From: a virus
Taxonomy: Duplodnaviria; Heunggongvirae; Uroviricota; Caudoviricetes
Virus record (IMG/VR): IMGVR_UViG_2663762810_000004
Location: 1 to 30,189 of that record
Direction: 5' to 3' (one strand)
Length of the DNA stretch: 30,189 nt
Shown: positions 5,051 to 25,922 of the stretch, in pieces
Layout of the letters: each line of letters opens with the position of its first letter
Position numbering within the stretch: position 1 is the stretch's first letter
The notes under the pieces: generated by a model
What the model was told of the DNA's origin: nothing
What the model saw: the letters and a program-made list of their open reading frames with translations, nothing else
Databases searched by the model: none
Made by a program: the position numbers and the translations under genes

Positions 5051-5214
5051 TTCAGGTTTCGCAAATTATACTTATCTTCACATTTTCATAATAGCGCATA
5101 AGCCAGCCCCCCCTCCATCAACCACAGCGCCATACGAACTATCGGAGGTGAGGCTAAATTAGTAATCGTTCTTACCTGCACAGGTGCATAAAAATCAGCC
5201 TAAAATGCGAGTTT

Positions 5215-5877
5215 TTATGAAGAGAGCAGCATGACTTTTTCTTTTGCGGGCGAAGGTGACTGCTCTTTCAAAGGGAAAATTATAAATGCTATAAATGCAG
5301 TAAATAATACTATGAAAGCTAGCACTGTAACTTTCCTTGAAGATGATAGGGCTTTGTTATATTCCTTGGCTATTTTGTTCGTTATATGGATCTTAGTGCT
5401 ATTTATTTCATCTTTTAGTATGGATAATTTATTTATAAATTCCTGTGTTTCTTCTCGAGAGTAAAGTTCTGAAGCATCTCTTGGGGTTTCATGTGGATGC
5501 CGAGTATAACCAAGTATTTGTGGTATTAAATTACCATGCGATTGAACTACAGATTCATATTTCTTATAGCAAGCATTATCAAAAAATCTCATTCTTATGC
5601 TAAGTTCTCTGAGTTTGTCAACGTCTAGAGAAACTTGTTCGTTGGCAATAATTAAATCTCCGCGGTTTAATGTATTCTTGTGTTGAAAAATTAGTAAAAG
5701 CCATTCTGTATTATTGTAAAGCTTTTCAAGATTGGCATGTATATCAAGTCCGAGTTTTTCATATGCGGATAATTTGACCTCTTTTTCCTTTGCAGAAAGA
5801 GAAGATGAATAAGCCAGTAATCCGCTTATTATGGCAACAATAAATGTTCCTATAATGGTTAAGGTATTCGAGTCCAT
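5215..5877 (-). CDS. AT-rich hypothetical membrane protein. Start taken at the internal Met (MDSNTLTII) at 5875-5877; the ORF track extends to 5934.
   Basis: Hydrophobic segments at both the N terminus (IIGTFIVAIISGLLAY) and C terminus (VLAFIVLFTAFIAFIIF). Convergent with the 4145-4996 gene. Confidence 0.5.
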   Translation of the reverse strand: MDSNTLTIIGTFIVAIISGLLAYSSSLSAKEKEVKLSAYEKLGLDIHANLEKLYNNTEWLLLIFQHKNTLNRGDLIIANEQVSLDVDKLRELSIRMRFFDNACYKKYESVVQSHGNLIPQILGYTRHPHETPRDASELYSREETQEFINKLSILKDEINSTKIHITNKIAKEYNKALSSSRKVTVLAFIVLFTAFIAFIIFPLKEQSPSPAKEKVMLLSS

Positions 5878-5984
5878 TGTATTCTTCAAAAGTTGGTCAA
5901 AAATATATTGTAATATTTTAATGTATAAAATCAATCATTTCCCCTCATTCTGAGAGGACTCACAGCAACAAAGAGGGGGGCTAA

Positions 5985-6371
5985 ATGTCCGATCCGATTT
6001 CCGGTTCTGGGATGGCTGGTGGTGTCCTGACGGGGGCCAGCGTCTATGGATTTCTGTCCGGAACCGATTACGGCGTGGTGTTTGGCGCATTTGCCGGGGC
6101 TGTATTTTACATTGCAACCGCAGCGGATCTAAGTGCAGCGCGCCGACTGGCATATTTTCTGGTGTCGTATATTGCGGGGATCCTTTGTTCCGGGCTGGTG
6201 GGTTCAAAGCTGGCTCAGGCTACCGGCTACAGTGATAAACCACTGGATGCCATTGGCGCCGTAATCGTTTCTGCTTTAGCCGTCAAAATCCTGACATTCC
6301 TGAATAATCAGGATGTCGGCTCGCTGGTGGCGCTGATAACGCGCCGGGGAGGTTCAGGTGGTACAAAATGA
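5985..6371 (+). CDS. Putative holin-like membrane protein
   Basis: 128 aa Gly/Ala-rich protein with several hydrophobic segments, directly upstream of the endolysin. SD-like GAGGGGGG lies upstream of the ATG. Confidence 0.5.
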   Translation: MSDPISGSGMAGGVLTGASVYGFLSGTDYGVVFGAFAGAVFYIATAADLSAARRLAYFLVSYIAGILCSGLVGSKLAQATGYSDKPLDAIGAVIVSALAVKILTFLNNQDVGSLVALITRRGGSGGTK

Positions 6372-6639
6372 CCCATCGGCAACTTTTAATGCATTGCTTT
6401 GTGCTGGGGTAGTGTTAACCCTGATGTTTTACCGTCGCGGCGACTCGCGACATCGACCGTGGATATCTCGCTTAGCGTGGCTGCTTACGGTCATCTACAG
6501 CGCCGTTCCGCTGGCGTATCTGTGCGGTATTTACCCGTACTCATCATGGGCCACTATCGGGGCCAACTTTATTTTCCTGTCCGTGCTGGTCGCCGTAAGA
6601 GGCAACGTGGCACGTCTGGTTGATCATCTGAGGCACTAA
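6358..6639 (+). CDS. Putative second holin/antiholin-like membrane protein
   Basis: 93 aa with 2-3 hydrophobic segments; overlaps the previous gene's end and abuts the endolysin start. Confidence 0.45.
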   Translation: MVQNDPSATFNALLCAGVVLTLMFYRRGDSRHRPWISRLAWLLTVIYSAVPLAYLCGIYPYSSWATIGANFIFLSVLVAVRGNVARLVDHLRH

Positions 6640-7253
6640 TGAACCAATCACAATTTCAGCAGGCGGCTGGTATCAGCGCCGGGCTTTCTGCGCGCTGGTT
6701 TCCGCACATTGACGCGGCAATGAAAGAGTTTGGCATTACAGCTACGAACGATCTGGCTATGTTCATCGCCCAGGTTGGGCATGAGTCTGCTGGCTTTACC
6801 TCGCTGGTGGAAAGCTTCAACTACTCGGTAGAGGGGCTGAAGAAAACCTTTGGTAAACGGCTTACTCCTTATCAGTGTGAAATGCTGGGTCGTGTCGATG
6901 GTAAGCAGGTGGCCCACCAGCCGCAAATAGCCAATCTGGTTTATGGTGACCGCATGGGGAATAACAGCCAGGGTGACGGCTGGAAATATCGCGGTCGCGG
7001 CCTGCTGCAAATCACGGGTCGTGAGAACTACACCAAATGCGGCACGGCGCTGAAACTTGACCTTATCAGTACGCCAGAATTGCTAACGCAAGAGCGACAT
7101 GCGGCTCGTTCGGCTGCGTGGTACTTCACGTTACGCGGTTGCCTGATGTATTCGGGTGACGTGGCACGCGTTACGCAGATTATTAACGGCGGACAGAACG
7201 GCATTAAAGACCGCCGTGAACGTTACGCCAAAGCTAAAGCTGCACTGGTGTGA
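6639..7253 (+). CDS. Endolysin, glycoside hydrolase family 19 (chitinase-like lysozyme)
   Basis: Contains the GH19 endolysin hallmark FIAQVGHESAGF and NYTKCG/LLQITGRENY motifs; sits between holin-like and spanin genes. Confidence 0.9.
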   Translation: MNQSQFQQAAGISAGLSARWFPHIDAAMKEFGITATNDLAMFIAQVGHESAGFTSLVESFNYSVEGLKKTFGKRLTPYQCEMLGRVDGKQVAHQPQIANLVYGDRMGNNSQGDGWKYRGRGLLQITGRENYTKCGTALKLDLISTPELLTQERHAARSAAWYFTLRGCLMYSGDVARVTQIINGGQNGIKDRRERYAKAKAALV

Positions 7254-7260
7254 GGTCAGT

Positions 7261-7530
7261 ATGGGGCTTGAAATGATTATCGGCCTGGTTGTTGCTGTGC
7301 TGGCTGCAATTGCAGGTGCTTTTGGGCTGGGCAAATCACGCGGTACCAGTATCGCTGAAACAAAAGCGGACCAACAACGCACTGAAGAACGTGCAATAGC
7401 TATTGAAGCGGTTGCAGAACGCCGGGTAGAAACAACAAAAGGAGCCAGGGATGTACAACAGACTGTTAACCATATGCCTGATGACGCTGCTGATCGCGAG
7501 CTGCGCAAAAACTGGACACGTAAGGATTGA
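7261..7530 (+). CDS. i-spanin (Rz-like). Start taken at the internal Met (MGLEMIIGL) at 7261; the ORF track begins at 7156.
   Basis: N-terminal TM helix (IIGLVVAVLAAIAGAF) followed by a charged helical region, immediately after the endolysin. Confidence 0.6.
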   Translation: MGLEMIIGLVVAVLAAIAGAFGLGKSRGTSIAETKADQQRTEERAIAIEAVAERRVETTKGARDVQQTVNHMPDDAADRELRKNWTRKD

Positions 7531-7672
7531 GGTTATTGACACCGGCTGCGATTGGGTAAAACCCATCTACGGCACTGCTCATGATTGGGAAGTGCTGGAC
7601 AGGCAGACCAAGAAAGACATTCTTATGCATAACAAAGTGTGGATGTCAAACTGTGGCTCTATAACTTATTGA
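7451..7672 (+). CDS. o-spanin (Rz1-like outer-membrane lipoprotein), overlapped type
   Basis: Signal peptide with lipobox LIASC. Begins in the +1 frame inside the i-spanin gene and extends beyond it. Confidence 0.6.
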   Translation: MYNRLLTICLMTLLIASCAKTGHVRIEVIDTGCDWVKPIYGTAHDWEVLDRQTKKDILMHNKVWMSNCGSITY

Positions 7673-8322
7673 TTTTGTTTTTTGTTGTCTACCATATCAG
7701 GCAATGTGAAGGCATATAGAAGAAATACTTCGGTGAAACCAATCATTTCTTGAGCATCTTCTTTTGAAAATTCTTCATCAGAATGAACTGCTCCATTGGA
7801 ATCGATTCGAACTATATGTGCCCATTCCCTCATTTGATCTGTAATCAGTCCCTTAGCATGCAACATAGAAATCCGTTTAACCAATTTTTCATCTTTTGAG
7901 TCATTTCCCAGTAACTCCCGTGTAGCAATGTCCAAGACTTTACGGCAAAGCATAACGGATGTGTCGAAACGACAGCGCCCTAAGTTGTCTTTTGCTTCTA
8001 TGAAAGCCATAGCAGCACGTGGCGGAGTGTGTTCGGGGGCGTTAAGGAGGGTGGGTTTCGGGATGATATCAATCAACTGGTACTCAGTATTTCCAGGAAT
8101 GATTACGTTTACATCATTATTTTGCCTAGATTTTGCACGAGGTAAATAACCACCGGGATTATTCATTTTTACAATAGCAATACCTGATTGAAAACAGCTT
8201 CGACAACAAAATGCAATATTAACTAAAGGCCCGGCGTTGATACGCAGTTCTGCCCATCCTTCAAGGACAGCATTTTCCCTCAGACAATGTGGGCAAGTGA
8301 TATCGAAAGTGAGAATTCGCAT
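7666..8322 (-). CDS. DUF4145-like protein with N-terminal Cys cluster (candidate abortive-infection/defence gene). Start taken at MRILTFD (8320-8322).
   Basis: C-terminal region (RKVLDIATRELLG...HAKGLITDQMREWAHIVRIDSNGAVH) matches the recalled DUF4145 helical signature. N-terminal CPHC...CCRSC suggests a zinc ribbon. Lies in the moron slot between lysis and packaging genes. Confidence 0.6.
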   Translation of the reverse strand: MRILTFDITCPHCLRENAVLEGWAELRINAGPLVNIAFCCRSCFQSGIAIVKMNNPGGYLPRAKSRQNNDVNVIIPGNTEYQLIDIIPKPTLLNAPEHTPPRAAMAFIEAKDNLGRCRFDTSVMLCRKVLDIATRELLGNDSKDEKLVKRISMLHAKGLITDQMREWAHIVRIDSNGAVHSDEEFSKEDAQEMIGFTEVFLLYAFTLPDMVDNKKQNQ

Positions 8323-9067
8323 GACTCTACTCCATACATTAAAAGAAATTGAAAATGAATTACACAATGCACAACGACCTGAGTCTACACTCCTTCAACG
8401 ATATGAAGTATCGAATGAGATTAAAAAAAAGGAGTTTGTAGTCGCTTTGATCGGTAAACTGATAGAATTGGACCGCCGTCTCTATGTCACATCATTGAAG
8501 CCTTAGTTTCAATTTTACCGATTTATCGCTTAAGGGGTAGGACTTCAACACTACTAAGTGAGCATTGCAGCAGGCATTCAGGGGAATGCTGTGACAGTAG
8601 TTAGCTAGGGTAAACCGTTTGCGCCTGGGGATTTTACTTTGCGACGGAAAATTAAAAAACTATATGATTTCTTATCCCACTAGGATGTCTGCGGACTACT
8701 ACTGACTGTTTAGGCTATTACGAGGGGCTCAAACTCAACGTCTGGCATCAACGCAGAACTGAAAAAGTCGCCATGAATGTGGTTACGGTATTTGGTGGGA
8801 TATAAACGTACCTTCATTTCTAAGCTTGATAATCACCTTTGTCCGAATTGCCTACGCGATAGTCATGTAGTTTTAGTCATAACCGTTTACCCTATTGATG
8901 TCAAGATAAATTGGATAACACTGATGAATCGAACCTCTAAATCCTTTGATGGGCCACTCATAGCTGACTGGTTCAAAAAAGTGTTATCAATGGTATGATA
9001 AGTTGAGATGAAAGGTGTAAATGAACTATAATAATTCAACAGTTAATCTGAGAAAAATGGATTATGT

Positions 9068-9337
9068 ATGTCGAATGTAAAAAAAATAGATGCTATAGTT
9101 CAAAATTTATTTGAATTCAGAGATGCTACAGGTGAACTTACGGATAAAAATATTGTTTTAATACAAAAAATCATAACGAACTTACCTGACTATGCTGGTA
9201 AGGATCCATATGAATTTTATTCATCATTTTCTGAAGATATTAATGAGTCGCTCAAAGCAATTGCCAATTATCATAAGGCACATGCTAAATACATTAATGC
9301 CCTCGATAAATTAGCAGAGCTTAGGTCGGAGGGGTAA
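9068..9337 (+). CDS. AT-rich hypothetical small protein (first gene of a two-gene cargo operon)
   Basis: 89 aa ORF in an AT-rich block; the next gene starts 3 nt after its stop. Confidence 0.5.
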   Translation: MSNVKKIDAIVQNLFEFRDATGELTDKNIVLIQKIITNLPDYAGKDPYEFYSSFSEDINESLKAIANYHKAHAKYINALDKLAELRSEG

Positions 9338-9339
9338 TA

Positions 9340-9717
9340 ATGGCTACGGAAGATATTCAGGCTTTGTTATCTAAAGTTAATGCGTTAAGATTTGAAGATA
9401 AAAGAATAGAGAAGGAAACAGGAGAGATTGAAAATGAAATTCAGGCTCAATTTCTTCGTGATGGTAAAACAAGGAGTACATTAACCATAACATTTATGAG
9501 AGGCTTTTTTGGTCTTATCGTTTTTTCTTTTATATTTGTGATAGTTTATAACTATTGCGCAGTGCAATGGGTACTTCAATTACAAAGCAAAGGGCTCATG
9601 GAGGCTTCTAAAAGTATCGCACTACTTGAGTTAGATAAGGTGTTATCTATTATGGTTAGTGCGTTAGGAACATCTCTTGGGTTTATAATTGGCTATTATT
9701 TTAAAGACAAAAAATAA
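9340..9717 (+). CDS. AT-rich hypothetical membrane protein (second gene of the two-gene cargo operon)
   Basis: N-terminal predicted coiled-coil (EDIQALLSKVNALRFEDKRIEKETGEIENEIQAQ) followed by a TM helix (FFGLIVFSFIFVIVYNY). Confidence 0.5.
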   Translation: MATEDIQALLSKVNALRFEDKRIEKETGEIENEIQAQFLRDGKTRSTLTITFMRGFFGLIVFSFIFVIVYNYCAVQWVLQLQSKGLMEASKSIALLELDKVLSIMVSALGTSLGFIIGYYFKDKK

Positions 9718-9790
9718 ATAATTTAATTTTACATTGCTATTTATGTTTTGCTTTTAAGATTTTTAACTTTCTAGATGTAGAGTTATTGTT

Positions 9791-9822
9791 AAAGCACTGG
9801 TATTTGCCAGTGCTTTTTTATT
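9791..9822 (+). terminator. Rho-independent terminator after the 9068-9717 operon
   Basis: AAAGCACTGG-tatttg-CCAGTGCTTTTTTATT: a perfect 10 bp stem plus T-run. Confidence 0.6.
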
Positions 9823-10217
9823 AAAATCCGCGGATTAATGACGGCAATCATGAATACTCCTCCAAAGACTGATCCAACGATACGGGTGTATAAGTCACAC
9901 TTGTTTAATCTGTGATTGATGGCACTATAATTTATGTTGCACAACATAAACTGCCGATGGAGGGAATTGAGTGCTGAGCATGTCAGACATAAGTGTGTTG
10001 TCGAAGGTCTCCTCAGGCATGGTTTCTGCATAACGTCGACACTTGAAAGCCTCCATAATGACAATAAAGTATAAGTATTATCATTATTAATTGTCACTTG
10101 CCGTTGCGACATGCTTGGGCGGCGACCGCCTAAGTTCTCTTTATAAATGAGAAGTTCCCGCTAGCGACCGTTTCTGATTCTTTTTTTCTACTAAGTTTGT
10201 ATCAAATAAACAGGATA

Positions 10218-10586
10218 ATGCCGATGCCAGCACGAGCAAAGCGTCCATGCCGGCACAAGGGCTGTGCGGCAGTTACCAACGATGCCAGTGGCTATTGTGA
10301 TCAACACCGACAGCGGCATGCTGGTGATGGCTGGCGTAACTATCAGGCAGGAAAGAGCAGGCAGGAACGTGGATATGGGCGGACCTGGGAAATTAAACGG
10401 GTGCGTATCCTTCAGCGTGATAAGTACCTGTGTCAGAACCATCGCCGGCAGAAGATTGCAAAAAAGGCGACCAGCGTTGACCACATCATTCCAAAAGCTC
10501 ATGGCGGTACTGATGACGATTTCAATCTTGAGTCGTTGTGCTGGGACTGCCACAGAGCGAAGACGGCAAGAGAGCGTATCCGATGA
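10218..10586 (+). CDS. Phage HNH endonuclease (packaging-associated). Start taken at MPMPARAK (10218).
   Basis: HNH motif (DHIIPKAHGGTDDDFNLESLCWDCH) with N-terminal Cys/His. Position upstream of terminase small subunit is typical of cos-packaging HK97-like modules. Confidence 0.8.
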   Translation: MPMPARAKRPCRHKGCAAVTNDASGYCDQHRQRHAGDGWRNYQAGKSRQERGYGRTWEIKRVRILQRDKYLCQNHRRQKIAKKATSVDHIIPKAHGGTDDDFNLESLCWDCHRAKTARERIR

Positions 10587-10921
10587 GTTAGACCCATTGC
10601 ACATATTTTGGTTCACGGCTCTATACAATAGCTAACTGCCCAAAATAATGGGGTGGTTCATCGCGCCGCGCCAACCTGCACTGCAGCTATTGTGGGCAGT
10701 CAGGGCATAACTCTAGTGCCTGTCCACATAATGAGAGCTGCGGTCGTCGGCGCAGCCTGAATGATGACTTCCATCTTGATTGATGCCCACACAGGCCAGG
10801 GGAAGGGGGGATCAAATCCCTGACCCCTTTCGCCTTCCAGGACTGCCGCCTGAAGGACATTTTTATACGCAAGAAATAAGGATCTTTTTTCCGGTAGGTT
10901 TTAACTATTAATAGAGGTGTT

Positions 10922-11356
10922 ATGGCTGGTGGAATTCGATCATCAGGCGGAGGGCGAAAGCCCGTTTTACCTTCAGGACAAAAAAGCAAACTGACCAGAA
11001 TCGCACCTCCCGCTGAGTTAATGGGGGAGAATGCAATAAGACTGTGGAAAACCCAAAGTAAAATTCTGATCGAAAGAGGCGTGTTTGAACTGGAGGATGC
11101 GCCCCTGCTTCTGGCTTACTGCAATGCCTTCCATTTAATGCTTGAAGCTGAAAAATTGCTCTCGTCAAGCCTGACGACCGAAAGTGAAATGGGGGGATTA
11201 AAGAAACATCCCGCCGTTAACATCAGAAATGATTCTGTTTCCCAGATAGCCCGTCTTGGCTCGCTTCTGGGGTTGGATCCACTCAGCCGAATTAGGATGC
11301 GTGGCAGTGGAAATGATCCGGACGACGACGGGAATGAATTTGATGAGTTTGACTGA
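10922..11356 (+). CDS. Terminase small subunit (P27-family-like)
   Basis: 144 aa ORF directly upstream of TerL with an acidic C terminus; family inferred from context and sequence character. Confidence 0.7.
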   Translation: MAGGIRSSGGGRKPVLPSGQKSKLTRIAPPAELMGENAIRLWKTQSKILIERGVFELEDAPLLLAYCNAFHLMLEAEKLLSSSLTTESEMGGLKKHPAVNIRNDSVSQIARLGSLLGLDPLSRIRMRGSGNDPDDDGNEFDEFD

Positions 11357-13077
11357 TGGCTACATATCCGAACGTCAATGCAGCGAACCAGTATGCAAGA
11401 GATGTTGTTGGCGGGAAGATCCTTGCTTGTCAGTTAACTGTGCTTGCCTGTCAAAGACACCTTGATGATTTGGAACGTGCGAAGGATCCTGCCTGGCCTT
11501 ACCGGTTTGATAAAAACAAGGCCGAGCGATTTTTGCGCTTTGCTCAGAAGATGCCTCATACGGCCGGTGAATGGGCCAGGAAGAAACTACGAATAGAATT
11601 TGAGCCCTGGCAAAAGTTTGCCCTTGGTGTGCCATTTGGATGGGTTAATAAGAAGTCCGGATTCCGGCGTTTTTCTGAAATATATATTGAGGTGCCCAGG
11701 AAAAATGGGAAATCCGCAATTGCAGCTGCCGTTGGTAATTATATGTTTTGCGCCGATGGTGAACATGGTGCAGAAGTGTACTGTGGCGCCACTACTGAAA
11801 AACAAGCCTGGAAAGTCTTCTCTCCCGCTCTACAAATGGTAAAAAAACTCCCGGCATTGCGACAAAAATACTCAGTCAAACCCTGGGCGAAGAAAATGAC
11901 CCGTCCGGATGGCTCTGTTTTTGCGCCAGTCATCGGCGATCCTGGTGACGGCGATTCCCCTTCATGTGCAATTATTGATGAATATCACGAGCATCAGACT
12001 GATGCACTTTATACAACGATGACTACCGGGATGGGGGCAAGGGAGCAGCCTGTTACTCTGATTATTACTACAGCGGGTTATGACATTACTTCGCCCTGTT
12101 ACGAGAAGCGTGTGCAGATAGTGGAAATTCTCCGCCGTAACCGGACAGGAGAAGAAAACGAGACAATATTTGGCATTATATACGGTCTGGATGACGATGA
12201 TGACTGGACCAGGCCCGAAGCGCTGATTAAAGCAAATCCCAACTTTGGTGTTTCTGTTAAAGAGCATTTTCTTCGGGCGAAGCAGTTACTGGGAATATCC
12301 AATCCCAGCCAGACTAACAAAATTCTGACCAAGCACTTTAACCGGTGGGTAAGTGCAAAAACGGTTTTTTATGACCTGCAAAGATGGATGGCTGCTGCGG
12401 ATAAAAACCTTAAATTATCTGATTTTGTTGATGAGGATTGCTGGCTGGGTATTGATCTGGCCTCGAAAGTAGACCTGAATGCCGTAGTGCCAGTGTTCAG
12501 GAGAGAGGTTGCTGGTATAACCCATTTTTACTGTGTGGGGCCGCTGTTCTGGGCGCCTGAAGATACAATTTATTCACCAGATCCCACGCTGAAAACCATT
12601 TCTGAACGTTACCAGTCATTTGTGAAACAGGGGGTATTGATACCTACTGAAGGGGCTGAGGTGGATTATCGGTTAATTTTTGAGTCAATTCTTCAGTTAC
12701 GCCAGCAGGTTAAAATTGTCCAGTGCCCGATAGATCCTTACGGGGCAACATCATTGCGCCATCTGCTTGAAGAGGAGGGGCTGGAATCCGTTGAGATCAG
12801 GCAAAATTTTACACATATGAGTGATCCAATGCGTGAAATTGAGGCGGCGCTGGCATCAGGACGCTTTCATCATGACGGTAACCCTATCATGAACTGGTGC
12901 ATCCAGAATGTTATAGGGCGTTACTTACCAGGAAGCGATGACATTGTTCGCCCAGGGAAGGAGAGAAAGCAAAACAAAATAGATGGCGCGGTAGGACTAA
13001 TGATGGGAGTCGGGCGAGCCATGCTGAACGGAACTGTCAGTAAATCGGCTTATGATGAGGAAGATATTACATGTTGA
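11356..13077 (+). CDS. Terminase large subunit
   Basis: 573 aa with Walker A-like VPRKNGKS and Walker B-like AIIDEYHE; Terminase_1-type architecture. Confidence 0.9.
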   Translation: MATYPNVNAANQYARDVVGGKILACQLTVLACQRHLDDLERAKDPAWPYRFDKNKAERFLRFAQKMPHTAGEWARKKLRIEFEPWQKFALGVPFGWVNKKSGFRRFSEIYIEVPRKNGKSAIAAAVGNYMFCADGEHGAEVYCGATTEKQAWKVFSPALQMVKKLPALRQKYSVKPWAKKMTRPDGSVFAPVIGDPGDGDSPSCAIIDEYHEHQTDALYTTMTTGMGAREQPVTLIITTAGYDITSPCYEKRVQIVEILRRNRTGEENETIFGIIYGLDDDDDWTRPEALIKANPNFGVSVKEHFLRAKQLLGISNPSQTNKILTKHFNRWVSAKTVFYDLQRWMAAADKNLKLSDFVDEDCWLGIDLASKVDLNAVVPVFRREVAGITHFYCVGPLFWAPEDTIYSPDPTLKTISERYQSFVKQGVLIPTEGAEVDYRLIFESILQLRQQVKIVQCPIDPYGATSLRHLLEEEGLESVEIRQNFTHMSDPMREIEAALASGRFHHDGNPIMNWCIQNVIGRYLPGSDDIVRPGKERKQNKIDGAVGLMMGVGRAMLNGTVSKSAYDEEDITC

Positions 13078-13248
13078 TCACTCTTTTAAGTTTTATTATC
13101 GGCCTCGCCGGAGCCGGGTTAGTGTCTGCCGGTGCCTGGCTTATTTCACCTGCAGCCGGGCTTATTACTGGCGGTTCAATCTGCCTGCTGTGGTCATTTT
13201 TAATCGCGAAATCGATGTCCGCCAGCGTAATTAAATCAGGGGGTGAAT
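13072..13248 (+). CDS. Possible small membrane protein between terminase and portal (58 aa)
   Basis: Hand-read ORF MLITLLSFIIGLAGAGLVSAGAWLISPAAGLITGGSICLLWSFLIAKS...; its ATG overlaps the TerL stop and it ends just before the portal start. Could be a non-coding spacer. Confidence 0.3.
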
Positions 13249-13249
13249 A

Positions 13250-14509
13250 ATGTTCATTCCCCAGATGTTTCGGGGTAAATCTCAGTCTGGTGGTGGTTTC
13301 TGGCAGGCGATGCTGGGTGGGGTGAGTTCCAGCCAGAGCAAGGCGGGGATCATTATCACTCCTGAAACCGCACTGGCGTTATCGGCGGTCCGGGCATGCG
13401 TAACGCTTCTGGCAGAATCGGTGGCGCAGTTGCCGTGTGAACTTTACAGGCGAGGCGCTAACGGAGGCCGTGAACGGGCGACTGACCACCCTGTTTATGA
13501 TCTGATTCATTCCCAGCCCAACAAAAAAGACACCTCGTTTGAATACTTTGAGCAGCAACAGGGCCTGCTCGGGCTGGAGGGAAATTGCTACTCGATCATC
13601 GACAGGGACGGGAAAGGGTATCCCCGCGAATTAATCCCGGTTAATCCCAAAAAAGTCATCGTCCTGAAAGGGCCTGACGGGATGCCCTATTATGAACTCC
13701 CCGAAATTGGCGAAACGTTGCCAATGCGCATGATGCATCATGTGAAGGTTTTCTCGCTGGATGGTTATATCGGTAGCTCTCCGATCCAGACGAACGCAGA
13801 CGTTCTTGGGCTGAACCTGGCCGTTGAAGAGCATGCTTCTCAGGTTTTTCGCCGTGGCACAACGATGAGCGGCGTTATTGAGCGACCAAAGGAGGCTCCG
13901 ACAATAAAGAACCAGGAGAAGATTGACCAACTTCTTGCTAAATGGACGGATCGTTATTCCGGTATGCGTAATGCCTTTTCTGTCGCATTGCTTCAGGAAG
14001 GGATGAGCTACAAACAGCTATCTCAGGATAATGAGAAAGCGCAGCTGTTGCAGTCCCGCCAGTGGGGCGTGGAGGAAGTTTGCCGACTCTATAAAATCCC
14101 GCCTCATATGGTGCAGATGCTGGCGAAAGCCACAAATAACAACATTGAGCATCAGGGGCTGCAGTTCGTCATGTATACGCTTTTAGCCTGGCTGAAACGC
14201 CATGAAGGCGCATTAATGCGCGATCTGCTTTTACCCAGCGAGCGCGGTAGTCTGTACATTGAATTCAATGTATCCGGCCTGCTGCGCGGGGATCAGAAGT
14301 CACGCTATGAATCTTATGCGCTGGGCCGTCAGTGGGGCTGGTTATCGGTTAATGACATTCGCCGCATGGAGAACCTTCCTCCCATCGCCGGTGGGGACAA
14401 ATACCTGACGCCTCTGAATATGGTCGACAGTAAACAAATCTTACCTGGCAATAACGCGCCAACAGCTAAACAACTGGCAGAAATCGAAACTATTCTGGCC
14501 AGAGCCTGA
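13250..14509 (+). CDS. Phage portal protein (HK97-family-like)
   Basis: 419 aa ORF in the canonical position after TerL and before the prohead protease. Confidence 0.8.
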   Translation: MFIPQMFRGKSQSGGGFWQAMLGGVSSSQSKAGIIITPETALALSAVRACVTLLAESVAQLPCELYRRGANGGRERATDHPVYDLIHSQPNKKDTSFEYFEQQQGLLGLEGNCYSIIDRDGKGYPRELIPVNPKKVIVLKGPDGMPYYELPEIGETLPMRMMHHVKVFSLDGYIGSSPIQTNADVLGLNLAVEEHASQVFRRGTTMSGVIERPKEAPTIKNQEKIDQLLAKWTDRYSGMRNAFSVALLQEGMSYKQLSQDNEKAQLLQSRQWGVEEVCRLYKIPPHMVQMLAKATNNNIEHQGLQFVMYTLLAWLKRHEGALMRDLLLPSERGSLYIEFNVSGLLRGDQKSRYESYALGRQWGWLSVNDIRRMENLPPIAGGDKYLTPLNMVDSKQILPGNNAPTAKQLAEIETILARA

Positions 14510-14521
14510 TTATTCCCCGCT

Positions 14522-15466
14522 ATGCGGGCTGACCTGGTATATCTCATGACAACAAAATTACTTAACCTGCCGCACCTCGCAGAAATGGTCTTCGGTGTGC
14601 CTCATTACGCAACACAACAGACGATGGACGCCGTGAAGGCGGTATTGCTTCCCCGTATTCAGGGAACGGTGACGGATCCGGTCATTACGATGGCGCTAAA
14701 TCCGGATGATTCGCCATCCCCGGAAGAGCTTCAGCCAGCCGGTGGTATCGCGGTTATTCCCGTTCACGGGATTCTGGTCCCCCGGCGCGGGCAAATTACA
14801 GCGATGTGTACCGAACTGACAAGCTATGAGCGAATCCGCAGCCAGCTGCATTCGGCATTAAATGACCCATCCATCAGTGAAATCGTTCTGGATATTAATT
14901 CAGGCGGCGGTTTAGCGCCCGGGTGCAAAGAGCTGGCTGATTATATTTATCAGTCGCGAGAAATGAAACCGATCACCGCTATTGTGAACTTTAATGCCTT
15001 CTCTGCCGCGTATTTTATCGCGTCGGCCTGCAGCAAGATTGTCGCCAGTCAGACCAGTGGCGTTGGCTCTATCGGGGTGATCATGGAGCACCTTGATACG
15101 TCAAAGCTGGAAGAGATCATGGGCGTAAAATTTACTGCACTCTACCGGGGAGATAACAAGAATAATGGCACGTCACATGCCGCGTTGAGTGAATCGGCTC
15201 TGACGATGTTCAACAAAATGCTCGACGACATGTACGAGACATTTACCTCCTCAGTGGCTGAGTATCGTGGTCTTAAACAGCAGGCAGTGACAGATACCCA
15301 GGCGGGAATCTACTTCGGCGCTGATGCTATTTCTGCTGGTCTTGCTGATGAAGTTTCGGATCCTCAGTCTGCGATTAATGCCATTGCGGCAAAGTACAAA
15401 CAACCTTCACAAACCACTTCCATAAAGCTGCAGGCAGCCGCGATGGACCTGCAAACCAGAATGTAA
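14522..15466 (+). CDS. Prohead/head maturation protease, S49 (SppA/ClpP-like) family
   Basis: S49 peptidase-like core (ISEIVLDINSGGGLAPGCKELADYIY ... SGVGSIGVIMEH) between portal and capsid. Confidence 0.85.
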   Translation: MRADLVYLMTTKLLNLPHLAEMVFGVPHYATQQTMDAVKAVLLPRIQGTVTDPVITMALNPDDSPSPEELQPAGGIAVIPVHGILVPRRGQITAMCTELTSYERIRSQLHSALNDPSISEIVLDINSGGGLAPGCKELADYIYQSREMKPITAIVNFNAFSAAYFIASACSKIVASQTSGVGSIGVIMEHLDTSKLEEIMGVKFTALYRGDNKNNGTSHAALSESALTMFNKMLDDMYETFTSSVAEYRGLKQQAVTDTQAGIYFGADAISAGLADEVSDPQSAINAIAAKYKQPSQTTSIKLQAAAMDLQTRM

Positions 15467-15541
15467 CCCGGCGCTCACGCGTCATTACCACCAGAAAGCA
15501 GCCTTAGTGCTGTTTTTTTATACCTGAAAAGAGAGAAAACT

Positions 15542-16333
15542 ATGCCACAGATTGAAGAATTACGTCGTCAGCGTGCGGGTATTAATGAGCAGGTTCAGGC
15601 CCTGGCCACGATTGAAACTACCGGTGGAACGCTGACAGCGGAGCAGTTAACCGAATTTGCCAGCATGCAGCAGCAGTTCACGGATATCAGCGCCAAAATT
15701 GAGCGTCTGGAAGCGGCTGAACGTGCCGCGGCGCTTGTTGCCACACCGGTTAGAGGCACACAGCAGGCTCCTGGTGTCATCGTTAAGGCGGAGCCAAAGC
15801 AATATACCGGGGCAGGCATGACCCGTCTGGTGATGTCGATTGCAGCAGCGGAGGGTAACATCCAGGAGGCTGCAAAATTTGCGGCGGAAGAACTGAATGA
15901 CCCGTCTGTCTCGATGGCCATCAGCACTGCCGCTGCGTCAGGCGGCGTTCTTATTCCGCAAAACCTTCACAGCGAAGTGATTGAGCTACTGCGCGATCGT
16001 ACCATCGTTCGTAAGCTGGGCGCGCGCTCCATTCCGCTGCCGAACGGCAATATGGCGCTGCCGCGTCTGGCCGGTGGAGCGACGGCGAACTATACCGGGG
16101 AAGGTAAGGATGCGAAAACATCAGAAGCGCGCTTTGACGATGTGAAACTCACTGCGAAAACCATGATTGCGATGGTGCCCATCTCAAATCAGCTCATTGG
16201 CCGCGCAGGTTTTAACGTTGAACAACTGGTATTGCAGGATATTCTGACGGCGATTTCTGTTCGCGAAGATACCTGCACCGTCAGAGAGTACGTCGTTCAT
16301 TTTGACGGTCAGGCTGTTTTCTGCCACCGCTGA
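15542..16333 (+). pseudogene. Major capsid protein, truncated (N-terminal delta domain plus part of the capsid fold only)
   Basis: Coiled-coil delta-like N terminus and capsid-like middle region, but only 263 aa. The ORF ends in unrelated sequence and is followed about 130 bp later by tail gene L, with all intervening head-tail genes absent. Confidence 0.65.
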
Positions 16334-16462
16334 ACAACTGATCAACATTCCAGCCATCACTAATATTCTTAATTCCATGATTAATGTTCCTTTTCTGTCA
16401 ATGACATCAATATTCTTATGTGATGGAGAGGTCTTTTTTCAACCAGTTTTACAGAAAGGATT

Positions 16463-17164
16463 TTGATTATGCAGGACGTCCCACAGGACACGCTTAACGA
16501 AACCACCCGAACAGAGCAGTCCGCCCGAATCAGTCTCTGGGAATTTGATGCAACAGCCATCGGAGGGGAGCGTTATTTTTTCTGTAATGAGCCCAATGAA
16601 AAAGGCGAGCCGGTGACCTGGCAGGGGCGACAGTATGAGCCTTACCCGATACAGTCAGATGATTTTGAGATGAACGGCGTCGGCCCGGCGCCGCGTATCA
16701 GCCTTGTCGTGTCGAATATGTTTGGTCTGGTGACGGGCATGGCGGAAGATCTGCAGAGTCTGACCGGCGCGCGGGTGGTGCGTCGCCTGGTGTATGCAAA
16801 ATTTCTCGATGCGGTGAATTTCGTGAACGGCAATCCGGATGCCGATCCGGAACAGGAGGCCGTGGCCTGGTATGTGGTGGAGCAGCTCTCGGAACTCACA
16901 TCCGGCACTGCCACATTTATTCTCGCTAACCCTGTTGAAACTGACGGCTCGGTGTTTCCGGCACGTATTATGCTGGCGGATATCTGTACGTGGACATACC
17001 GGGGAGATGAGTGCGGGTATGACGGCCCGCCGGTAGCCGATGAATTTGATAAACCCACCTCAGATCCTGCAAAGGATCAATGCAGCAGATGTCCTGCAGG
17101 ATGCAGGCTACGTAACAATATTGCCAGAGCAGGCTTTTTTATCTCCATTAACAAACTTTCCTGA
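16463..17164 (+). CDS. L: Minor tail protein L (lambda gpL-like)
   Basis: Matches the recalled lambda gpL nearly along its length (NEPNEKGEPVTWQGRQY...PYPIQ, TWTYRGDECGY, SINKLS). Confidence 0.9.
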   Translation: MIMQDVPQDTLNETTRTEQSARISLWEFDATAIGGERYFFCNEPNEKGEPVTWQGRQYEPYPIQSDDFEMNGVGPAPRISLVVSNMFGLVTGMAEDLQSLTGARVVRRLVYAKFLDAVNFVNGNPDADPEQEAVAWYVVEQLSELTSGTATFILANPVETDGSVFPARIMLADICTWTYRGDECGYDGPPVADEFDKPTSDPAKDQCSRCPAGCRLRNNIARAGFFISINKLS

Positions 17165-17174
17165 CGGTGACGTT

Positions 17175-17918
17175 ATGACAAAAACAGAACAGGATATTCT
17201 GGCGCATGCCGCACAGTGTGCACCGGCGGAATCGTGCGGGTATGTGGTCAGAACGGATGCGGGGGAGATGTACCTTCCCTGTGAAAATCTGTCTGCGGAA
17301 CCCACCATGTATTTTCGCATGGTGCCGGAGGCGTATCTCCGTGCGCAGGCGGCAGGCGACATCGTGGCGCTGGTCCACAGTCACCCGGGCGGCCAGCCGT
17401 TTCTGAGTGAAGGGGACCGATGTTTGCAGTTACAGAGTGCACTTCCCTGGTGGCTGGCCTGCGACGGTAAAGTGCATAAGTTTCGCTGCGTGCCGCATCT
17501 CACAGGGCGGAGTTTTGAACATGGTGTGACGGACTGCTACACACTGCTGCGGGACGCCTGGCATCTGGCGGGGATCGAACTGCCTGATTTTGAACGCCAG
17601 GATGGCTGGTGGGATCGTGGGGAGAATATGTATCTGGATAATTTTCCTGACATTGGTTTTTACCCGGTAGAGCCTGAGGCCACGCAGACGGGGGATGTGT
17701 TGATTTGCTGCTTCGCATCGTCGGTGGCGAATCATGCCGCAGTGATCTGTGACAATGGGGAGCTGTTACACCATATTCCTGACCAGTTAAGCAAACGAGA
17801 GAGGTATACCGACAAATGGCAACGCCGCACACACTCAATCTGGCGTCACCGGGAATGGCGCGCATCTGCCTTTACGGGGATTTACAACGATTTGGTCGCC
17901 GCATTGATCTCAGCATAA
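17175..17918 (+). CDS. K: Tail assembly protein K (lambda gpK-like; JAB/MPN plus NlpC/P60 domains). Start taken at MTKTEQD (17175).
   Basis: Matches recalled lambda gpK (CAPAESCGYVV, VALVHSHPGG, KFRCVPHLTGR, HGVTDCYTL, NHAA). Confidence 0.9.
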   Translation: MTKTEQDILAHAAQCAPAESCGYVVRTDAGEMYLPCENLSAEPTMYFRMVPEAYLRAQAAGDIVALVHSHPGGQPFLSEGDRCLQLQSALPWWLACDGKVHKFRCVPHLTGRSFEHGVTDCYTLLRDAWHLAGIELPDFERQDGWWDRGENMYLDNFPDIGFYPVEPEATQTGDVLICCFASSVANHAAVICDNGELLHHIPDQLSKRERYTDKWQRRTHSIWRHREWRASAFTGIYNDLVAALISA

Positions 17919-18526
17919 ATTCAGCGGCGGAAGGGCTGCATGCGCTGTTTATGCAGATACCGGAATTCCGTCAAAAACTGAACGAAGGCTGGTACCAGGT
18001 CCGGATTTCAGGACAGGATATTGCTTCTGATGAGGTGACCGCCCGGCTGCATGAGCCTTTACTGCCGGGGGCTGTCATTCATATCGTGCCCCGGGCCGAA
18101 GGTGCAAAATCCGGCTGGGGGGGGATAATTCTGGGGGGAATTCTGGTCGCCGCTTCATTTATCCCCGGGCTGAATGCAATGGTGGCGACCGCCATGCTTT
18201 CATTTGGTATCTCAGCGACACTGGGGGGCGTGGCGCAGTTACTGACCCCGAAAGTGAATACGGCGGATGGCAATACAGCCGATAACGGTAAGCAGAGTAC
18301 ATACTTTTCCTCACTCGAAAACATGATTGCCCAGGGGAATCCGATGCCGGTACCGTACGGTGAAATTATGGTGGGGTCCCGGCGGATTTCGCAGACCCTG
18401 AGTACACGGGATGAGAGCTCGCCGGAGAAGGTGATTAATTATGGCGGACCGTTCGCCCGGTACGAGGAGCTCATGTTACAGATTGCCGGGCTGCCCATTA
18501 CGAAGCCTCGAGTTATTGTGCACTGA
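17816..18526 (+). CDS. I: Tail assembly protein I (lambda gpI-like), with a divergent C terminus
   Basis: N-terminal 200 aa match recalled lambda gpI (PGMARICLYGDLQRFGRRIDL ... DNGKQSTYFSSLENM...PVPYGE); the last 35 aa or so do not. Overlaps K as in lambda. Confidence 0.85.
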   Translation: MATPHTLNLASPGMARICLYGDLQRFGRRIDLSINSAAEGLHALFMQIPEFRQKLNEGWYQVRISGQDIASDEVTARLHEPLLPGAVIHIVPRAEGAKSGWGGIILGGILVAASFIPGLNAMVATAMLSFGISATLGGVAQLLTPKVNTADGNTADNGKQSTYFSSLENMIAQGNPMPVPYGEIMVGSRRISQTLSTRDESSPEKVINYGGPFARYEELMLQIAGLPITKPRVIVH

Positions 18527-18595
18527 CGCAGTTTCACAGCGTACCGATACTGACCGCCCTGATGGCGGTTTTGTCATTTATGGAGTGAGTAAAAC

Positions 18596-18985
18596 ATGGG
18601 TGGGAAGAACAAGAAAAAGCAGAGCACGCCGTATGAAGAGCCGGATAACCTGAAATCGGTACAGGAACTGAGCTTCATTGACGCCATCGGGGAAGGGCCG
18701 ATCGAGGGACTGGTTAAGGGGATGCAAAGTATCCTTATCAACAACACCCCCCTGGTAAATGACGATGACAGCTACAACGTACACGGTGTCACAGCAATTT
18801 ATAACGCCGGTGAACAGGAGCAGACCCCGCTGGAGGGGTTTGAAGATACCGGCGTGGAGGTCATGGTCAACGCTGAGATCAAACAGGATGCCCCCATTAC
18901 CCGGACCATTTCGGCGCGGAAGATGTTGTGCTTACAGGCACTTGGCAGGCTATGGGGTATTACCGGGAGGCCTATTATCAACTAA
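18596..18985 (+). pseudogene. J: Tail tip/host-specificity protein J, N-terminal fragment only (about 106 aa of J, then unrelated tail)
   Basis: Residues 1-106 match the lambda gpJ N terminus (DNLKS.Q...DAI.EGPIEG ... AGEQEQTP.EGFE ... PITRTI). The frame then runs into unrelated sequence and stops; lambda J is over 1100 aa. Confidence 0.8.
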
Positions 18986-20174: not shown

Positions 20175-22232
20175 ATGCCCATTCTTGCACCAGGATTTTT
20201 GGGAGGCTCGTCCGCCGGGAATGGCGGCGGGCCGGTCTCTTCAGTTCAGCAGCCGGAATACTTCTATGTCATCCCGGTTGCCGGTCAGTCAAACGCGATG
20301 GCCTACGGCGAAGGGCTCCCCCTTCCAGACACGCTGGATGCGCCTCACCCGCGTATTAAACAGCTGGCCCGGCGCGCCACGGTAACGCCCGGCGGCGATG
20401 CCTGCAAATACAACGACATTATTCCTCTCGATCACTGTCCGCACGATGTTCAGGACATGAGCGGGATCAGCCACCCGAGAGCGGACCTCAGTAAAGGGCA
20501 ATATGGGTGTGTCAGCCAGACGCTGCACATTGCCAGAAAACTCCTGGCCTGGATCCCCGATAACGCAGGTATTCTGATGGTGCCCTGTTGTCGCGGTGGC
20601 TCTGCCTTCACGCAGGGAGTGGACGGCACTTTCAACGTTGTCAGTGGTGCCAGCGAAACCGCAACCCGATGGGGGGCGGGAAAGCCGTTGTACCGTGACC
20701 TGCTCACCCGCACGAAAGCAGCGCTCGACAGCAACCCGAAAAATATGCTGCTGGCGGTATGCTGGATGCAGGGTGAATTTGATATGACAGGGGCGGCTTA
20801 TGCACAGCAGCCTGCGCTGTTCGACGCTATGGTCAGGCAGTTCCGTACCGACCTGGCGGATTACGCGGGGCAGTGCCCGGACTTCCGGCCTGACAGTGTG
20901 CCGTGGCTGTGCGGGGACACCACGTACTACTGGAAGCGCAACTATCCCGCCCAGTACGATGCTGTTTATGGCGCGTACAGTAAAACCAGTGTCAGCGGCG
21001 TACATTTTGTGCCGTTCATGGTCAGCGAGGATGGCACGAACACCCCTACCAACGCCCCGGCTGAGGATCCGAATGTTCCGGCTGCGGGGTATTTCGGCTC
21101 GGCATCCCGTACTTCTGCCAACTGGACCAGCTCGATCCGCAACAGTCATTTCAGTTCGTGGGCCCGGCGAAACATCATCGCAGAACGTATGGCGGCGGCC
21201 ATTCTGCTGCACGCCGGGCGACGGTCACTGCTGGCGGCCCCGGTTAGTGGAAGTGCAGCGTCTTCAACGGGCGATACAGGCAATGTGGGAACGAGTACGC
21301 TGAAATACGCCCCTGTTGTGGAGGACGCCGGTTATAACGGGCGGCGCGGGGACGGGACGCCGGAGGCCCAGGGCTGGTCAGCCAGCGGCGGTAATTTTAA
21401 CGTGGCACCACACCCGGATGGTAAAGGGGGGCATGTGCTGCAGATCCGCAGAAAAGCCAGTGAAGTCTGGAAAATGGAACGGGCAACCCGACAGGCCGCT
21501 GATTTGTTACGGTATGGTGGCGAGGTGCAGTGCAACTTCCGGCTCGTTAATACACTGACGGCAAACCAGTTTGCTTTTGGCTGCTATCTGCTGGTGAATG
21601 AATCGGATGTTCCGGCCGGAGCCTCGTTACGGCTGAAAGCCGAGGGCACCACACCGGCGCTGATGAATTTCTTCATACAGACGAATGCTACAGATTTGAA
21701 TCTGATGATGCACTGCAAACCCGACAATATCAGGCTGGGTACGTACGGTGCGTACAATCAGGACTGGCATTCGTTCAGGGTCGTTTACCATGGCGGAAAC
21801 ACAGCCCGGGCCACGCTTTATCTCGATGGTGAGTCGAAGGGCGAGTTCACGCTGGCGTACTCGCCGGGGGCTGTCGATGCAGGCATGCTGCAACTGACAA
21901 ATATCACCTCCTCACCGACCTATGGATGCAATATTAAGGATTTTACCGTCAAAATTTACCGCGACGATGCCATAGTCAGTCTGCCTGACGACGATGTGTC
22001 CAGTCTGATTTATTTTCCGGCGGGGGAGCGCGGCGGGAAAGTGGTGTTACCGGATGCGAAAATCAGCGCAGGAAACACAGTGCAGGTGGTGGTGAACAAT
22101 GCCGGTATCATCGCCATTGAACCAGCAAGCAGCAACGTACTGCTTAACAATCTGCCTTCTTCTGCAACCACTGACAGAAGTGTCACGCTGGTTCAGACCA
22201 GTCTGGACGGGAAGACCTGGGTGATTACCTGA
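20175..22232 (+). CDS. Tail-fibre-region protein with an N-terminal SGNH hydrolase/sialate-O-acetylesterase-like domain and a C-terminal lectin-like region (NanS-p-like)
   Basis: N-terminal FYVIPVAGQSNAMAYGE (GQSN motif) and CWMQGEFDM are typical of the SGNH/SASA esterase family. 685 aa; the 3' end is duplicated downstream at about 25216-25383. Confidence 0.75.
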   Translation: MPILAPGFLGGSSAGNGGGPVSSVQQPEYFYVIPVAGQSNAMAYGEGLPLPDTLDAPHPRIKQLARRATVTPGGDACKYNDIIPLDHCPHDVQDMSGISHPRADLSKGQYGCVSQTLHIARKLLAWIPDNAGILMVPCCRGGSAFTQGVDGTFNVVSGASETATRWGAGKPLYRDLLTRTKAALDSNPKNMLLAVCWMQGEFDMTGAAYAQQPALFDAMVRQFRTDLADYAGQCPDFRPDSVPWLCGDTTYYWKRNYPAQYDAVYGAYSKTSVSGVHFVPFMVSEDGTNTPTNAPAEDPNVPAAGYFGSASRTSANWTSSIRNSHFSSWARRNIIAERMAAAILLHAGRRSLLAAPVSGSAASSTGDTGNVGTSTLKYAPVVEDAGYNGRRGDGTPEAQGWSASGGNFNVAPHPDGKGGHVLQIRRKASEVWKMERATRQAADLLRYGGEVQCNFRLVNTLTANQFAFGCYLLVNESDVPAGASLRLKAEGTTPALMNFFIQTNATDLNLMMHCKPDNIRLGTYGAYNQDWHSFRVVYHGGNTARATLYLDGESKGEFTLAYSPGAVDAGMLQLTNITSSPTYGCNIKDFTVKIYRDDAIVSLPDDDVSSLIYFPAGERGGKVVLPDAKISAGNTVQVVVNNAGIIAIEPASSNVLLNNLPSSATTDRSVTLVQTSLDGKTWVIT

Positions 22233-22920: not shown

Positions 22921-22952
22921 ATATGTATTTCACCATCAGGCGGAACAAGTCA

Positions 22953-23333
22953 ATGAGTAAATTCACCACCCCGGCGATACTGGAAATGCTGGGTCATTAC
23001 AAATGGCGGGTGTACGAACCCTTCGAGTTTTACCTCTCGGATGACAACAGCGATGTGATTAAGGTCCCGGCGGGGTTTGTGACCGATCTGGCAAGCGTGC
23101 CCCGGATATTCTGGACATTCCTCCCACCTGATGGGCGGTATGCCAAAGCAGCTATCATTCATGATTACATGTACGATAATGCGCTACGGACAAAGAAAGA
23201 AGCCGATCTCATTTTTCTGGACGGGATGCGGGTACTGGGTGTGCCAGAGTGGAAGCGTTCGGTGATGTACCACGCTGTACGGATGTTTGGTAAAGGGCGG
23301 TATGCGCAGAATAGAACCCTTCCAGGTGTTTAG
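22953..23333 (+). CDS. DUF1353-like small protein, copy 1. Start taken at MSKFTT (22953).
   Basis: Conserved VPAGFVTDLASVPR ... AAIIHDYMYD pattern recalled for DUF1353. Near-identical second copy at 25923-26303 and a decayed copy at 24808. Confidence 0.6.
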   Translation: MSKFTTPAILEMLGHYKWRVYEPFEFYLSDDNSDVIKVPAGFVTDLASVPRIFWTFLPPDGRYAKAAIIHDYMYDNALRTKKEADLIFLDGMRVLGVPEWKRSVMYHAVRMFGKGRYAQNRTLPGV

Positions 23334-23423
23334 TCACCAGTTCCGGAAGATCAGCTCGGCTGAGTCGGGCTTCTATCGACTGAAATAACTTCTCCATTTC
23401 GTTCTTGTACATATGAATTCCAC

Positions 23424-23460
23424 AGAAAAAATGCCACTTATCTGGCTTCCAGATAAGTGG
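23424..23460 (-). terminator. Rho-independent terminator for the minus-strand cargo gene; also present in the duplicated copy at about 26394-26430
   Basis: Perfect palindrome CCACTTATCTGG-cttc-CAGATAAGTGG preceded on the plus strand by AAAAAAT (a U-tract on the minus strand). Confidence 0.5.
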
Positions 23461-23485
23461 CCAGTCAACGGTAGAACGCTTCTAC

Positions 23486-24370
23486 TTAGCTTTTTGTGAA
23501 ACGGTAAAATAAATTGGGCTCACTGACAATATACAAATTAAATTTGTCATCGATAGTAATGCCCTCTGCTTGTTTAATATCCTTTGTTAATCCCGACCAC
23601 CCTGCATCCAGATAGAGTCGATCGGTAATACGTCCCACAGGATTAACTTCAACCACTATTTTTGATTCATCTGAAAGTATCAGTAGTGAAGATGTTAGAG
23701 GATGGTAATGCAGCCCAGATACATCCTTCAAAGACGAAGTGATAACGGTTGGAAAAATTTTAATATGCGCATCATCATTCTGGGGAAATATTCTGCTAAT
23801 GATTATTGGTATTTTTTCCTTTGCTGAATATAAATGCTGTTTCTCTTTATCCCAGGCCAGTCCTTCCAGTCCGTTGTTTTTGGGAGTGGCGTAATCATTA
23901 AACTTAATCTTCGAAATGACAGTATAACTAAAAGCATGTAAGTCTAATTTTACCATCCAGGCTGTGCTGTTTTTCTCACTTCCTATATAGAATACATCTT
24001 TACCAACCCACTCTACAGCTTCTGTATCCTCAAATTCAGGTAAGGTCATACTTCCCACTCTGTCGCCTTCCTTTGTCAGCCATATCAGTTCTGGTGGGTT
24101 ATTAACAACAGCAAACAGAAGTTTGTGTTTATCTGACCAGGTCAGGCCAGACAGATTATTCTTTACACCTTCAACAGGTTTGCCCTCTATGTCTGCCCGA
24201 TATGCGCTAAGATTAAGGCTTGTTGGGATATCTTCATATTTTTCATATAATCGATAGATATATATTATATCCTTATAGATGTACATAAAACAAACCACAA
24301 AAATAGCCACAAAAATTAAATACCTTAAATATATGCTCAATATTTCATCCAAATAATAAAGTAAAGCCAA
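23486..24370 (-). CDS. AT-rich cargo protein with N-terminal hydrophobic segment and beta-rich body (possibly YjiK/SdiA-regulated-like propeller; unconfirmed)
   Basis: 294 aa ORF in a strongly AT-rich block flanked by the two DUF1353 repeat copies and followed by a terminator. N terminus LIFVAIFVVCFMYIY is hydrophobic; the true start may be a later Met. Confidence 0.6.
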   Translation of the reverse strand: MALLYYLDEILSIYLRYLIFVAIFVVCFMYIYKDIIYIYRLYEKYEDIPTSLNLSAYRADIEGKPVEGVKNNLSGLTWSDKHKLLFAVVNNPPELIWLTKEGDRVGSMTLPEFEDTEAVEWVGKDVFYIGSEKNSTAWMVKLDLHAFSYTVISKIKFNDYATPKNNGLEGLAWDKEKQHLYSAKEKIPIIISRIFPQNDDAHIKIFPTVITSSLKDVSGLHYHPLTSSLLILSDESKIVVEVNPVGRITDRLYLDAGWSGLTKDIKQAEGITIDDKFNLYIVSEPNLFYRFTKS

Positions 24371-25890: not shown

Positions 25891-25922
25891 AGATTTATTT
25901 CACCAGCAGACGGAATAAGTCA

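Follow-up and report, generated by a model that had tools for sequence, protein, structure and literature searches.

How does an HK97-type capsid gene of 263 codons come to stand next to the tail-tip gene L, a gene that in lambda follows the head-completion, tail-shaft and tape-measure genes? The arrangement is found in a 30,189-nucleotide stretch of virus DNA (IMG/VR record IMGVR_UViG_2663762810_000004), which is referred to here at its full length as the window. Comparison with intact relatives indicates that one 8,100-bp internal deletion very probably produced this interval. The affected element is a lambdoid prophage at the E. coli icd/e14 site that combines an HK97-like head with a lambda-like tail tip. 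Capsid codon 243 would have been joined to codon 36 of sodC, a gene of divergent orientation located between M and L, and the event would represent one step in a stepwise decay that also took the early region and most of J. The coordinates of the relevant features are listed in Table 1.

Table 1 Features of the prophage and of the deletion junction (positions in the window; a dot marks features without strand).
Feature	Position	Strand	Basis or remark
Lambda-type integrase	1-1206	-	Gene list
Early-region remnants, ~2 kb between integrase and Q	1207-3270	.	Immunity and replication region gone
Q antiterminator	3271-3981	not stated	Gene list
S49 head-maturation protease, intact, upstream neighbor of the capsid remnant	14522-15466	+	Pfam Peptidase_S49, E = 2e-33
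HK97-type major capsid gene remnant, codons 1-243 of 427	15542-16271	+	Pfam, database relatives, alignment with L075
Chimeric 64-aa predicted ORF, sodC signal peptide plus antisense capsid	16184-16378	-	ORF list
Deletion junction, TA present in both parental sequences (2-bp microhomology)	16270-16271	.	Alignment and exact reconstruction
Read-through tail of the chimeric capsid ORF, 20 unrelated codons plus stop	16272-16333	+	Antisense of sodC
Imperfect inverted repeat, CCTG(C)ACCGTCA, 19 nt, TGACGGTCAGG	16272-16313	.	DNA fold
Cu,Zn superoxide dismutase (sodC) 5' remnant	16272-16378	-	tblastn to Gifsy-2 sodC, 68% identity over 36 aa
sodC-L intergenic spacer, unaltered relative to the intact phage	16379-16468	.	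Colinear with and identical to L075
Tail-tip gene L, full length, 231 aa, ATG at 16469	16469-17164	+	PF05100 positions 1-206 of 206, E = 1e-89
Tail-tip gene K (JAB + NlpC/P60)	17175-17918	+	Pfam
Tail-tip gene I (PF06805)	17855-18526	+	Pfam
Host-specificity gene J remnant, 129 aa instead of 1166	18596-18985	+	Comparison with intact L070

The capsid remnant and its neighbors

The capsid ORF (15542-16333, plus strand) comprises 243 capsid codons followed by 20 read-through codons. Pfam Phage_capsid (PF05065) aligns residues 134-243 with the first 111 positions of its 280-position profile, and the alignment with a solved capsid chain (8gta) likewise begins at residue 134. The ORF thus retains the N-terminal delta/scaffold part and ~110 residues of the mature fold, and does not give the full-length match of ~280 profile positions with P domain, A domain and E-loop that defines the HK97-fold capsid. 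BLASTP comparison with the 427-aa capsid protein of an intact relative (L075, described below) shows identity over residues 1-243 (...LTAISVRED) and unrelated sequence from residue 244. The closest database proteins are HK97-type major capsid proteins of 427-428 aa, at 98% identity or less and all ~165 residues longer, and no short capsid or scaffold protein aligns with the 263-aa product over its whole length. Its final 20 residues (TCTVREYVVHFDGQAVFCHR) are an antisense reading of the sodC 5' end. A preliminary description of this DNA had proposed a truncated capsid gene whose end reads through into unrelated sequence; the partial Pfam coverage, the loss of identity at residue 243 and the antisense sodC tail bear out both proposals. 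The remnant occupies the expected position in the head module, following the portal gene (13250-14509) and the S49 protease gene, the latter being 100% identical to that of L075.

The gene that follows the capsid ORF was recognized early on as gpL-like. It matches the PF05100 profile over its full length and is succeeded by K and I homologues, as befits a member of the lambda gpL family, and the same L protein is also present in intact phages. A scan of species-representative genomes with the L protein retrieved at best relatives of 48-58% identity (Edwardsiella, Budvicia, Mannheimia).

Judged by sequence comparison, the right side of the junction corresponds to a minus-strand accessory gene, sodC, formerly located between M and L, and not to intergenic DNA. 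Read from 16378 to 16272, the remnant encodes MELRILVMAGMLISCSAVAENSLTVKMNDVLSDGAG, which represents the signal peptide and first residues. The 36 N-terminal codons left in the window, counting the TA at the junction, do not provide the complete catalytic domain and metal ligands of a Cu,Zn superoxide dismutase (PF00080). The intact sodC of L075 encodes a 175-aa PF00080 protein with 84% identity to Gifsy-2 SodCI. The segment 16334-16462, in which additional structural genes would have spoken against a deletion, contains none; in the intact phage, the colinear stretch comprises the 5' end of sodC and the spacer between sodC and L. An Rfam search of the region returned no matches, and promoter and terminator scans of the region remained at background level. 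The predicted 263-aa and 64-aa chimeric ORFs would be by-products of the fusion. The 263-aa "phage major capsid protein" WP_282956028.1 is a chimeric pseudogene, which matters mainly for annotation.

The deletion and its intact parent

L075, a 51-kb human-gut metagenome contig found among contigs that encode an identical L protein, is 100% identical to the window on both sides of the junction (left, 14569-16271; right, 16270-18910). Its gene order comprises the protease, the 427-aa capsid protein, five small head-tail genes including Phage_HCP, the major tail protein (Phage_TTP_13), a chaperone (Phage_TAC_14), a 990-aa tape measure protein, M (114 aa), an Ail/Lom protein (188 aa), sodC (175 aa, minus strand), L, K, I and J. 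The same arrangement occurs in L085, L086, L092 and L079, which come from other samples. Relative to L075, the window lacks the C-terminal 184 capsid codons and the five head-tail connector genes on the head side; on the tail side, M, the 990-aa tape measure and the genes for the major tail protein and the assembly chaperone are missing, so that no gene required for head completion or for the tail tube is left. The Lom/Ail outer-membrane gene and sodC codons 37-175 were lost as cargo. All of the gene classes previously named as missing (head completion, tail shaft, tape measure and M) thus lie within the deleted L075 block, together with the chaperone. No parent was found among complete RefSeq E. 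coli genomes by megablast of positions 15000-17500, the sole match being a plasmid-prophage at 78%.

Alignment with intact copies placed the junction at TA 16270-16271. Homology to intact relatives on the left (99.7-100%) ends at 16271, and homology to the intact sodC-L region on the right begins at 16270. The intact capsid gene reads ...GCGAAGA[TA]AAGCTT... at the breakpoint, the intact sodC site reads ...GATGTTTT[TA]CCTGCACC..., and the window reads ...GCGAAGA[TA]CCTGCACC.... In silico removal of L075 positions 1704-9803 (8,100 bp) reproduces window positions 14569-18568 verbatim over the 4,000 nt tested, in agreement with the proposal of one internal deletion from mid-capsid to M. Some details require adjustment. 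The fusion point had been placed about 130 bp upstream of L; that figure is the distance from the stop codon of the chimeric ORF to L, and the junction itself (16271|16272) lies 197 bp from the L start. Microhomology at the junction is limited to the 2-bp TA, an overlap that is close to chance expectation.

The exact reconstruction shows no filler DNA, no IS element or IS terminal repeats, and no target duplication beyond TA at the junction, and thus nothing that would mark an IS-mediated adjacent deletion. With a 2-bp overlap and neither filler nor IS trace, RecA-independent illegitimate recombination would be the most likely process, either through replication template switching or slippage or through microhomology-mediated end joining, a mechanism that we infer from the junction sequence alone. 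The same capsid::sodC junction was found in seven independent samples (GCA_000948905.1, the source of the window, GCA_900448675.1, GCA_018390955.1, GCA_054079675.1, SRR6072479, SRR36486897 and SRR1783866) and is therefore not an assembly artefact. Junction-pattern scans of viral and metagenome contigs yielded intact sodC sites only, without any additional class of junction. Explanations of the Chi-like, restriction-site and IS200/IS605 type near the breakpoints were discarded on inspection by eye, as their geometry does not fit.

A shared right endpoint and competing explanations

Five sister samples (GCA_016109105.1, GCA_958326645.1, CP057470.1, SRR29108465 and SRR11234998) carry a second, 10,027-bp deletion that extends from the portal gene (window position 14344) to the identical right-hand base. 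This portal::sodC junction reads GGGCTGG[TTA]CCTGCACC, with a TTA overlap. The loci compared for the shared endpoint were L069, L072, L074, L076, L087, L088 and L095. The capsid::sodC and portal::sodC classes have the early-region deletion and the host flank in common, and both therefore arose within one already defective lineage. Each copy has 0-3 private SNPs in a star-like pattern, which is compatible with either order of the two sodC-anchored deletions. Whether the deletions were nested or independent, the coincidence of their endpoints is unlikely under random breakage, and the existence of the second class counts against a purely random breakage model.

The 5' foot of the inverted repeat within the sodC remnant coincides exactly with the right breakpoint, and the hairpin may have favored the event. 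Its stability is modest, with a calculated DNA folding energy of -8.7 kcal/mol and z = -1.7 to -2.7; in the intact prophage, hairpins of equal or greater stability have their foot at only 1.1% of positions. The stem heptamer CCGTCAG recurs 18 nt upstream of the portal breakpoint in direct orientation and 27 nt upstream of the capsid breakpoint in inverted orientation, a proximity found at only 1.4% of positions, although the motif was spotted post hoc. These occurrences hint at a hairpin-assisted template switch that repeatedly strips structural genes from the phage. As a contributor to the deletions, such a switch is plausible but unproven. The stronger proposition, namely that the hairpin foot at 16272 acts as a hotspot for structure-directed deletions and has served two or more times in a single lineage (for the 8,100-bp and the 10,027-bp deletions), is tentative and on balance unlikely. 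Short-homology deletions at palindromes or hairpins in E. coli resemble the present case in their seamless junctions, 2-3 bp overlaps and endpoints at the foot of an inverted repeat. Classical palindrome-associated deletions, however, remove the palindrome between longer direct repeats, whereas here the hairpin is retained, its role is no more than putative, and the deletions extend over 8-10 kb. The shared endpoint of the two deletions nevertheless offers a small, testable lead on deletion hotspots.

The common endpoint could also have been fixed by an enzyme, either a TA-targeting IS or a recombinase acting at a pseudo-site in sodC, that generated adjacent deletions from an anchored end. Nested deletions with a fixed end classically mark IS-adjacent or Int-promoted events, and such anchoring would agree with two classes that end at exactly the same base and have both junctions on TA or TTA. 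In addition, an IS3-family transposase fragment is located beside lom in a relative (L077). The anchored event is nonetheless very improbable, given that it needs two independent, precise losses of the element, and that no recombinase core-like site was recognized, the partner sites having just TA or TTA in common. The junction is seamless, lacking an IS end, filler or target duplication beyond TA, and all seven loci that retain an intact sodC site are free of insertions at this position; both findings make anchoring by an IS or a recombinase less probable than the hairpin-assisted template switch.

Two further explanations dispense with an internal deletion or assign a function to its product. 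The loci first found as relatives of the head module (L009 and L011-L014) lack sodC and have L-K-I genes only 71% identical to those of the window, which suggested that two different prophages had been joined here or that the junction is a naturally occurring mosaic boundary. Recombination between two phages was ruled out by L075, a single contig that is 100% identical to the window on both sides and contains the complete gene set between them; in L085, L086 and L092 this head is likewise combined with the 990-aa tape measure. The mosaic is therefore older than the deletion, and next to no probability attaches to a joint of this kind. It is also extremely unlikely that the 263-aa ORF is a selected short capsid, scaffold or decoy, for instance a dominant-negative fragment that blocks related phages. 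This possibility draws on capsid fusions in two divergent relatives that break within ~30 nt of the window's breakpoint: in P0026/L080 (8001-9062) the capsid is fused to a tail-fiber chaperone domain (S74), and in P0123 it is fused in-frame to gpM. The two relatives have 84% and 93% aa identity, and their breakpoints lie 22-30 nt downstream of that in the window, a closeness that may reflect a hotspot or ascertainment bias, P0123 having come from a length-biased cluster. The C-terminal 20 residues of the ORF are, however, antisense read-through, and the capsid copies lack the sequence divergence that a selection test could use. Since sister strains drop the fragment entirely (portal::sodC) or cut it at nt 379 (L083), there is no evidence of selection on it. 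The single internal deletion thus remains the preferred account of the locus.

Stepwise decay of the prophage

The window is essentially one cryptic prophage. Downstream of Q it encodes holins, endolysin, an HNH endonuclease, the small and large terminase subunits, portal and protease, and downstream of the J stump a DUF4376 protein, a SASA/DUF6645 fiber-like protein and two DUF1353 genes around an SdiA-regulated-domain gene. A Bro/AntA gene is followed at the right end by the host genes iraM and ycgX, which places the integration at the icd/e14 site, adjoining iraM-ycgX-bluR-bluF. The bluR-bluF genes beyond the right flank are 99.5% identical to those of E. coli, and source databases label the capsid-ORF protein as E. 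coli. Relative to an intact relative, genes for particle formation are missing, J is truncated and the early region is reduced to ~2 kb, the features of a defective prophage. From this gene loss, the prophage would be unable to build heads or tails or to form particles. The losses agree with the reported tendency of incomplete prophages to shed genes with lytic and structural functions preferentially (PMC7744054).

Comparison with intact copies places the early-region deletion junction of the window at ~2812-2818; sister strains L087 and L088 have a 41-bp early-region remnant flanked by AAAGCG repeats that is absent from the window. The J-region deletion, defined against intact L070, removes ~4.4 kb spanning most of J and the side-fiber N-terminus, with its junction at 18919-18924 and a 6-bp overlap. 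Although 0-3 SNPs over 10-20 kb separate the near-identical capsid::sodC copies, their J-region deletions differ. The three other J-region deletions in sister copies share the same core and have overlaps of 6-11 bp, and the set is strictly nested in L070 coordinates: 14201-16399 lies within 13926-16687, which lies within 12457-16901, which in turn lies within ~10157-17095. Overlaps at other deletions in the same prophage range from 2 to 11 bp. In L083 (GCA_044010595.1), a large deletion extends from capsid nt 379 (window position 15920) to window position 21281, within the DUF6645 fiber-like gene; its early region is kept (RusA, ANT, DUF968), and its deletion is independent. Intact, virtually identical copies are represented by L075, L086 and L097. 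As an intact copy separated by 0-3 SNPs per 10-20 kb still circulates, the decay is very recent, and the combination of so few SNPs with varied large deletions shows that deletions accumulate much faster than substitutions here. The near-identical intact and deleted copies thereby constitute a natural time series with four states of the structural region and with nested J and early-region deletions.

The intact prophage copy in L097, as seen by comparison with L094, adjoins an iraM region that is ~5% diverged from the window flank (beyond ~28500). The site used by the live phage is therefore the same, although the E. coli background differs.

These losses are of an ordinary, well-documented kind of prophage decay, without departure from known kinds. 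With the cryptic lambdoid E. coli prophages e14, DLP12, Rac and Qin, the window prophage shares the pattern of decay by deletion and, with e14, the icd site; like them it retains integrase, Q, lysis, tail-tip and fiber genes and cargo, while the early region and the head and tail genes are gone. It differs from e14 in belonging to another phage lineage. Its head genes resemble those of Klebsiella phage phiKO2 and HK97-like heads (terminase, portal, S49 protease, 427-428-aa capsid, connectors, major tail protein, chaperone and tape measure), with 78% nucleotide identity between the head modules of the window and phiKO2. phiKO2 itself is a linear-plasmid prophage that lacks sodC and has a complete capsid gene, in contrast to the window, where the capsid gene breaks off at codon 243. 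Gifsy-2 has the gene order of the intact parent, with H, M, a lom-like/Ail gene, sodC on the opposite strand, L, K, I and J, and its sodCI is an expressed accessory gene (PMC7067206). The Gifsy-2 head is of the ClpP type, whereas that of the window is HK97/phiKO2-like (S49 protease, PF05065 capsid); the L-K-I genes have ~71% nucleotide identity, and sodC is destroyed in the window. The region should be labeled as a defective prophage that lost sodC/lom virulence-type cargo.

Several other features of the window were noted. The ORFs at 4145-4996 (+), 5215-5934 (-) and 7666-8367 (-), positioned between Q and holin and between the lysis and terminase genes, resemble accessory genes and match, respectively, DUF5677 (weakly), an unknown product and a DUF4145 DNA-binding protein. 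PADLOC, applied to eight ORFs elsewhere in the window including these three, gave no defense-system match. The 685-aa protein encoded at 20175-22232, which contains a sialate O-acetylesterase-like (SASA) domain and DUF6645, is probably a fiber or spike with a deacetylase domain. Among the near-identical sister copies that span it, only L083 and L087 do not retain it intact. Further to the right, the DUF1353 genes are carried on a direct repeat of ~555 bp with 95% identity (22923-23477 and 25893-26448) that flanks the minus-strand SdiA-regulated-domain (SrgE-like) gene at 23486-24370, and the whole block looks like duplicated cargo at the right arm of the prophage.
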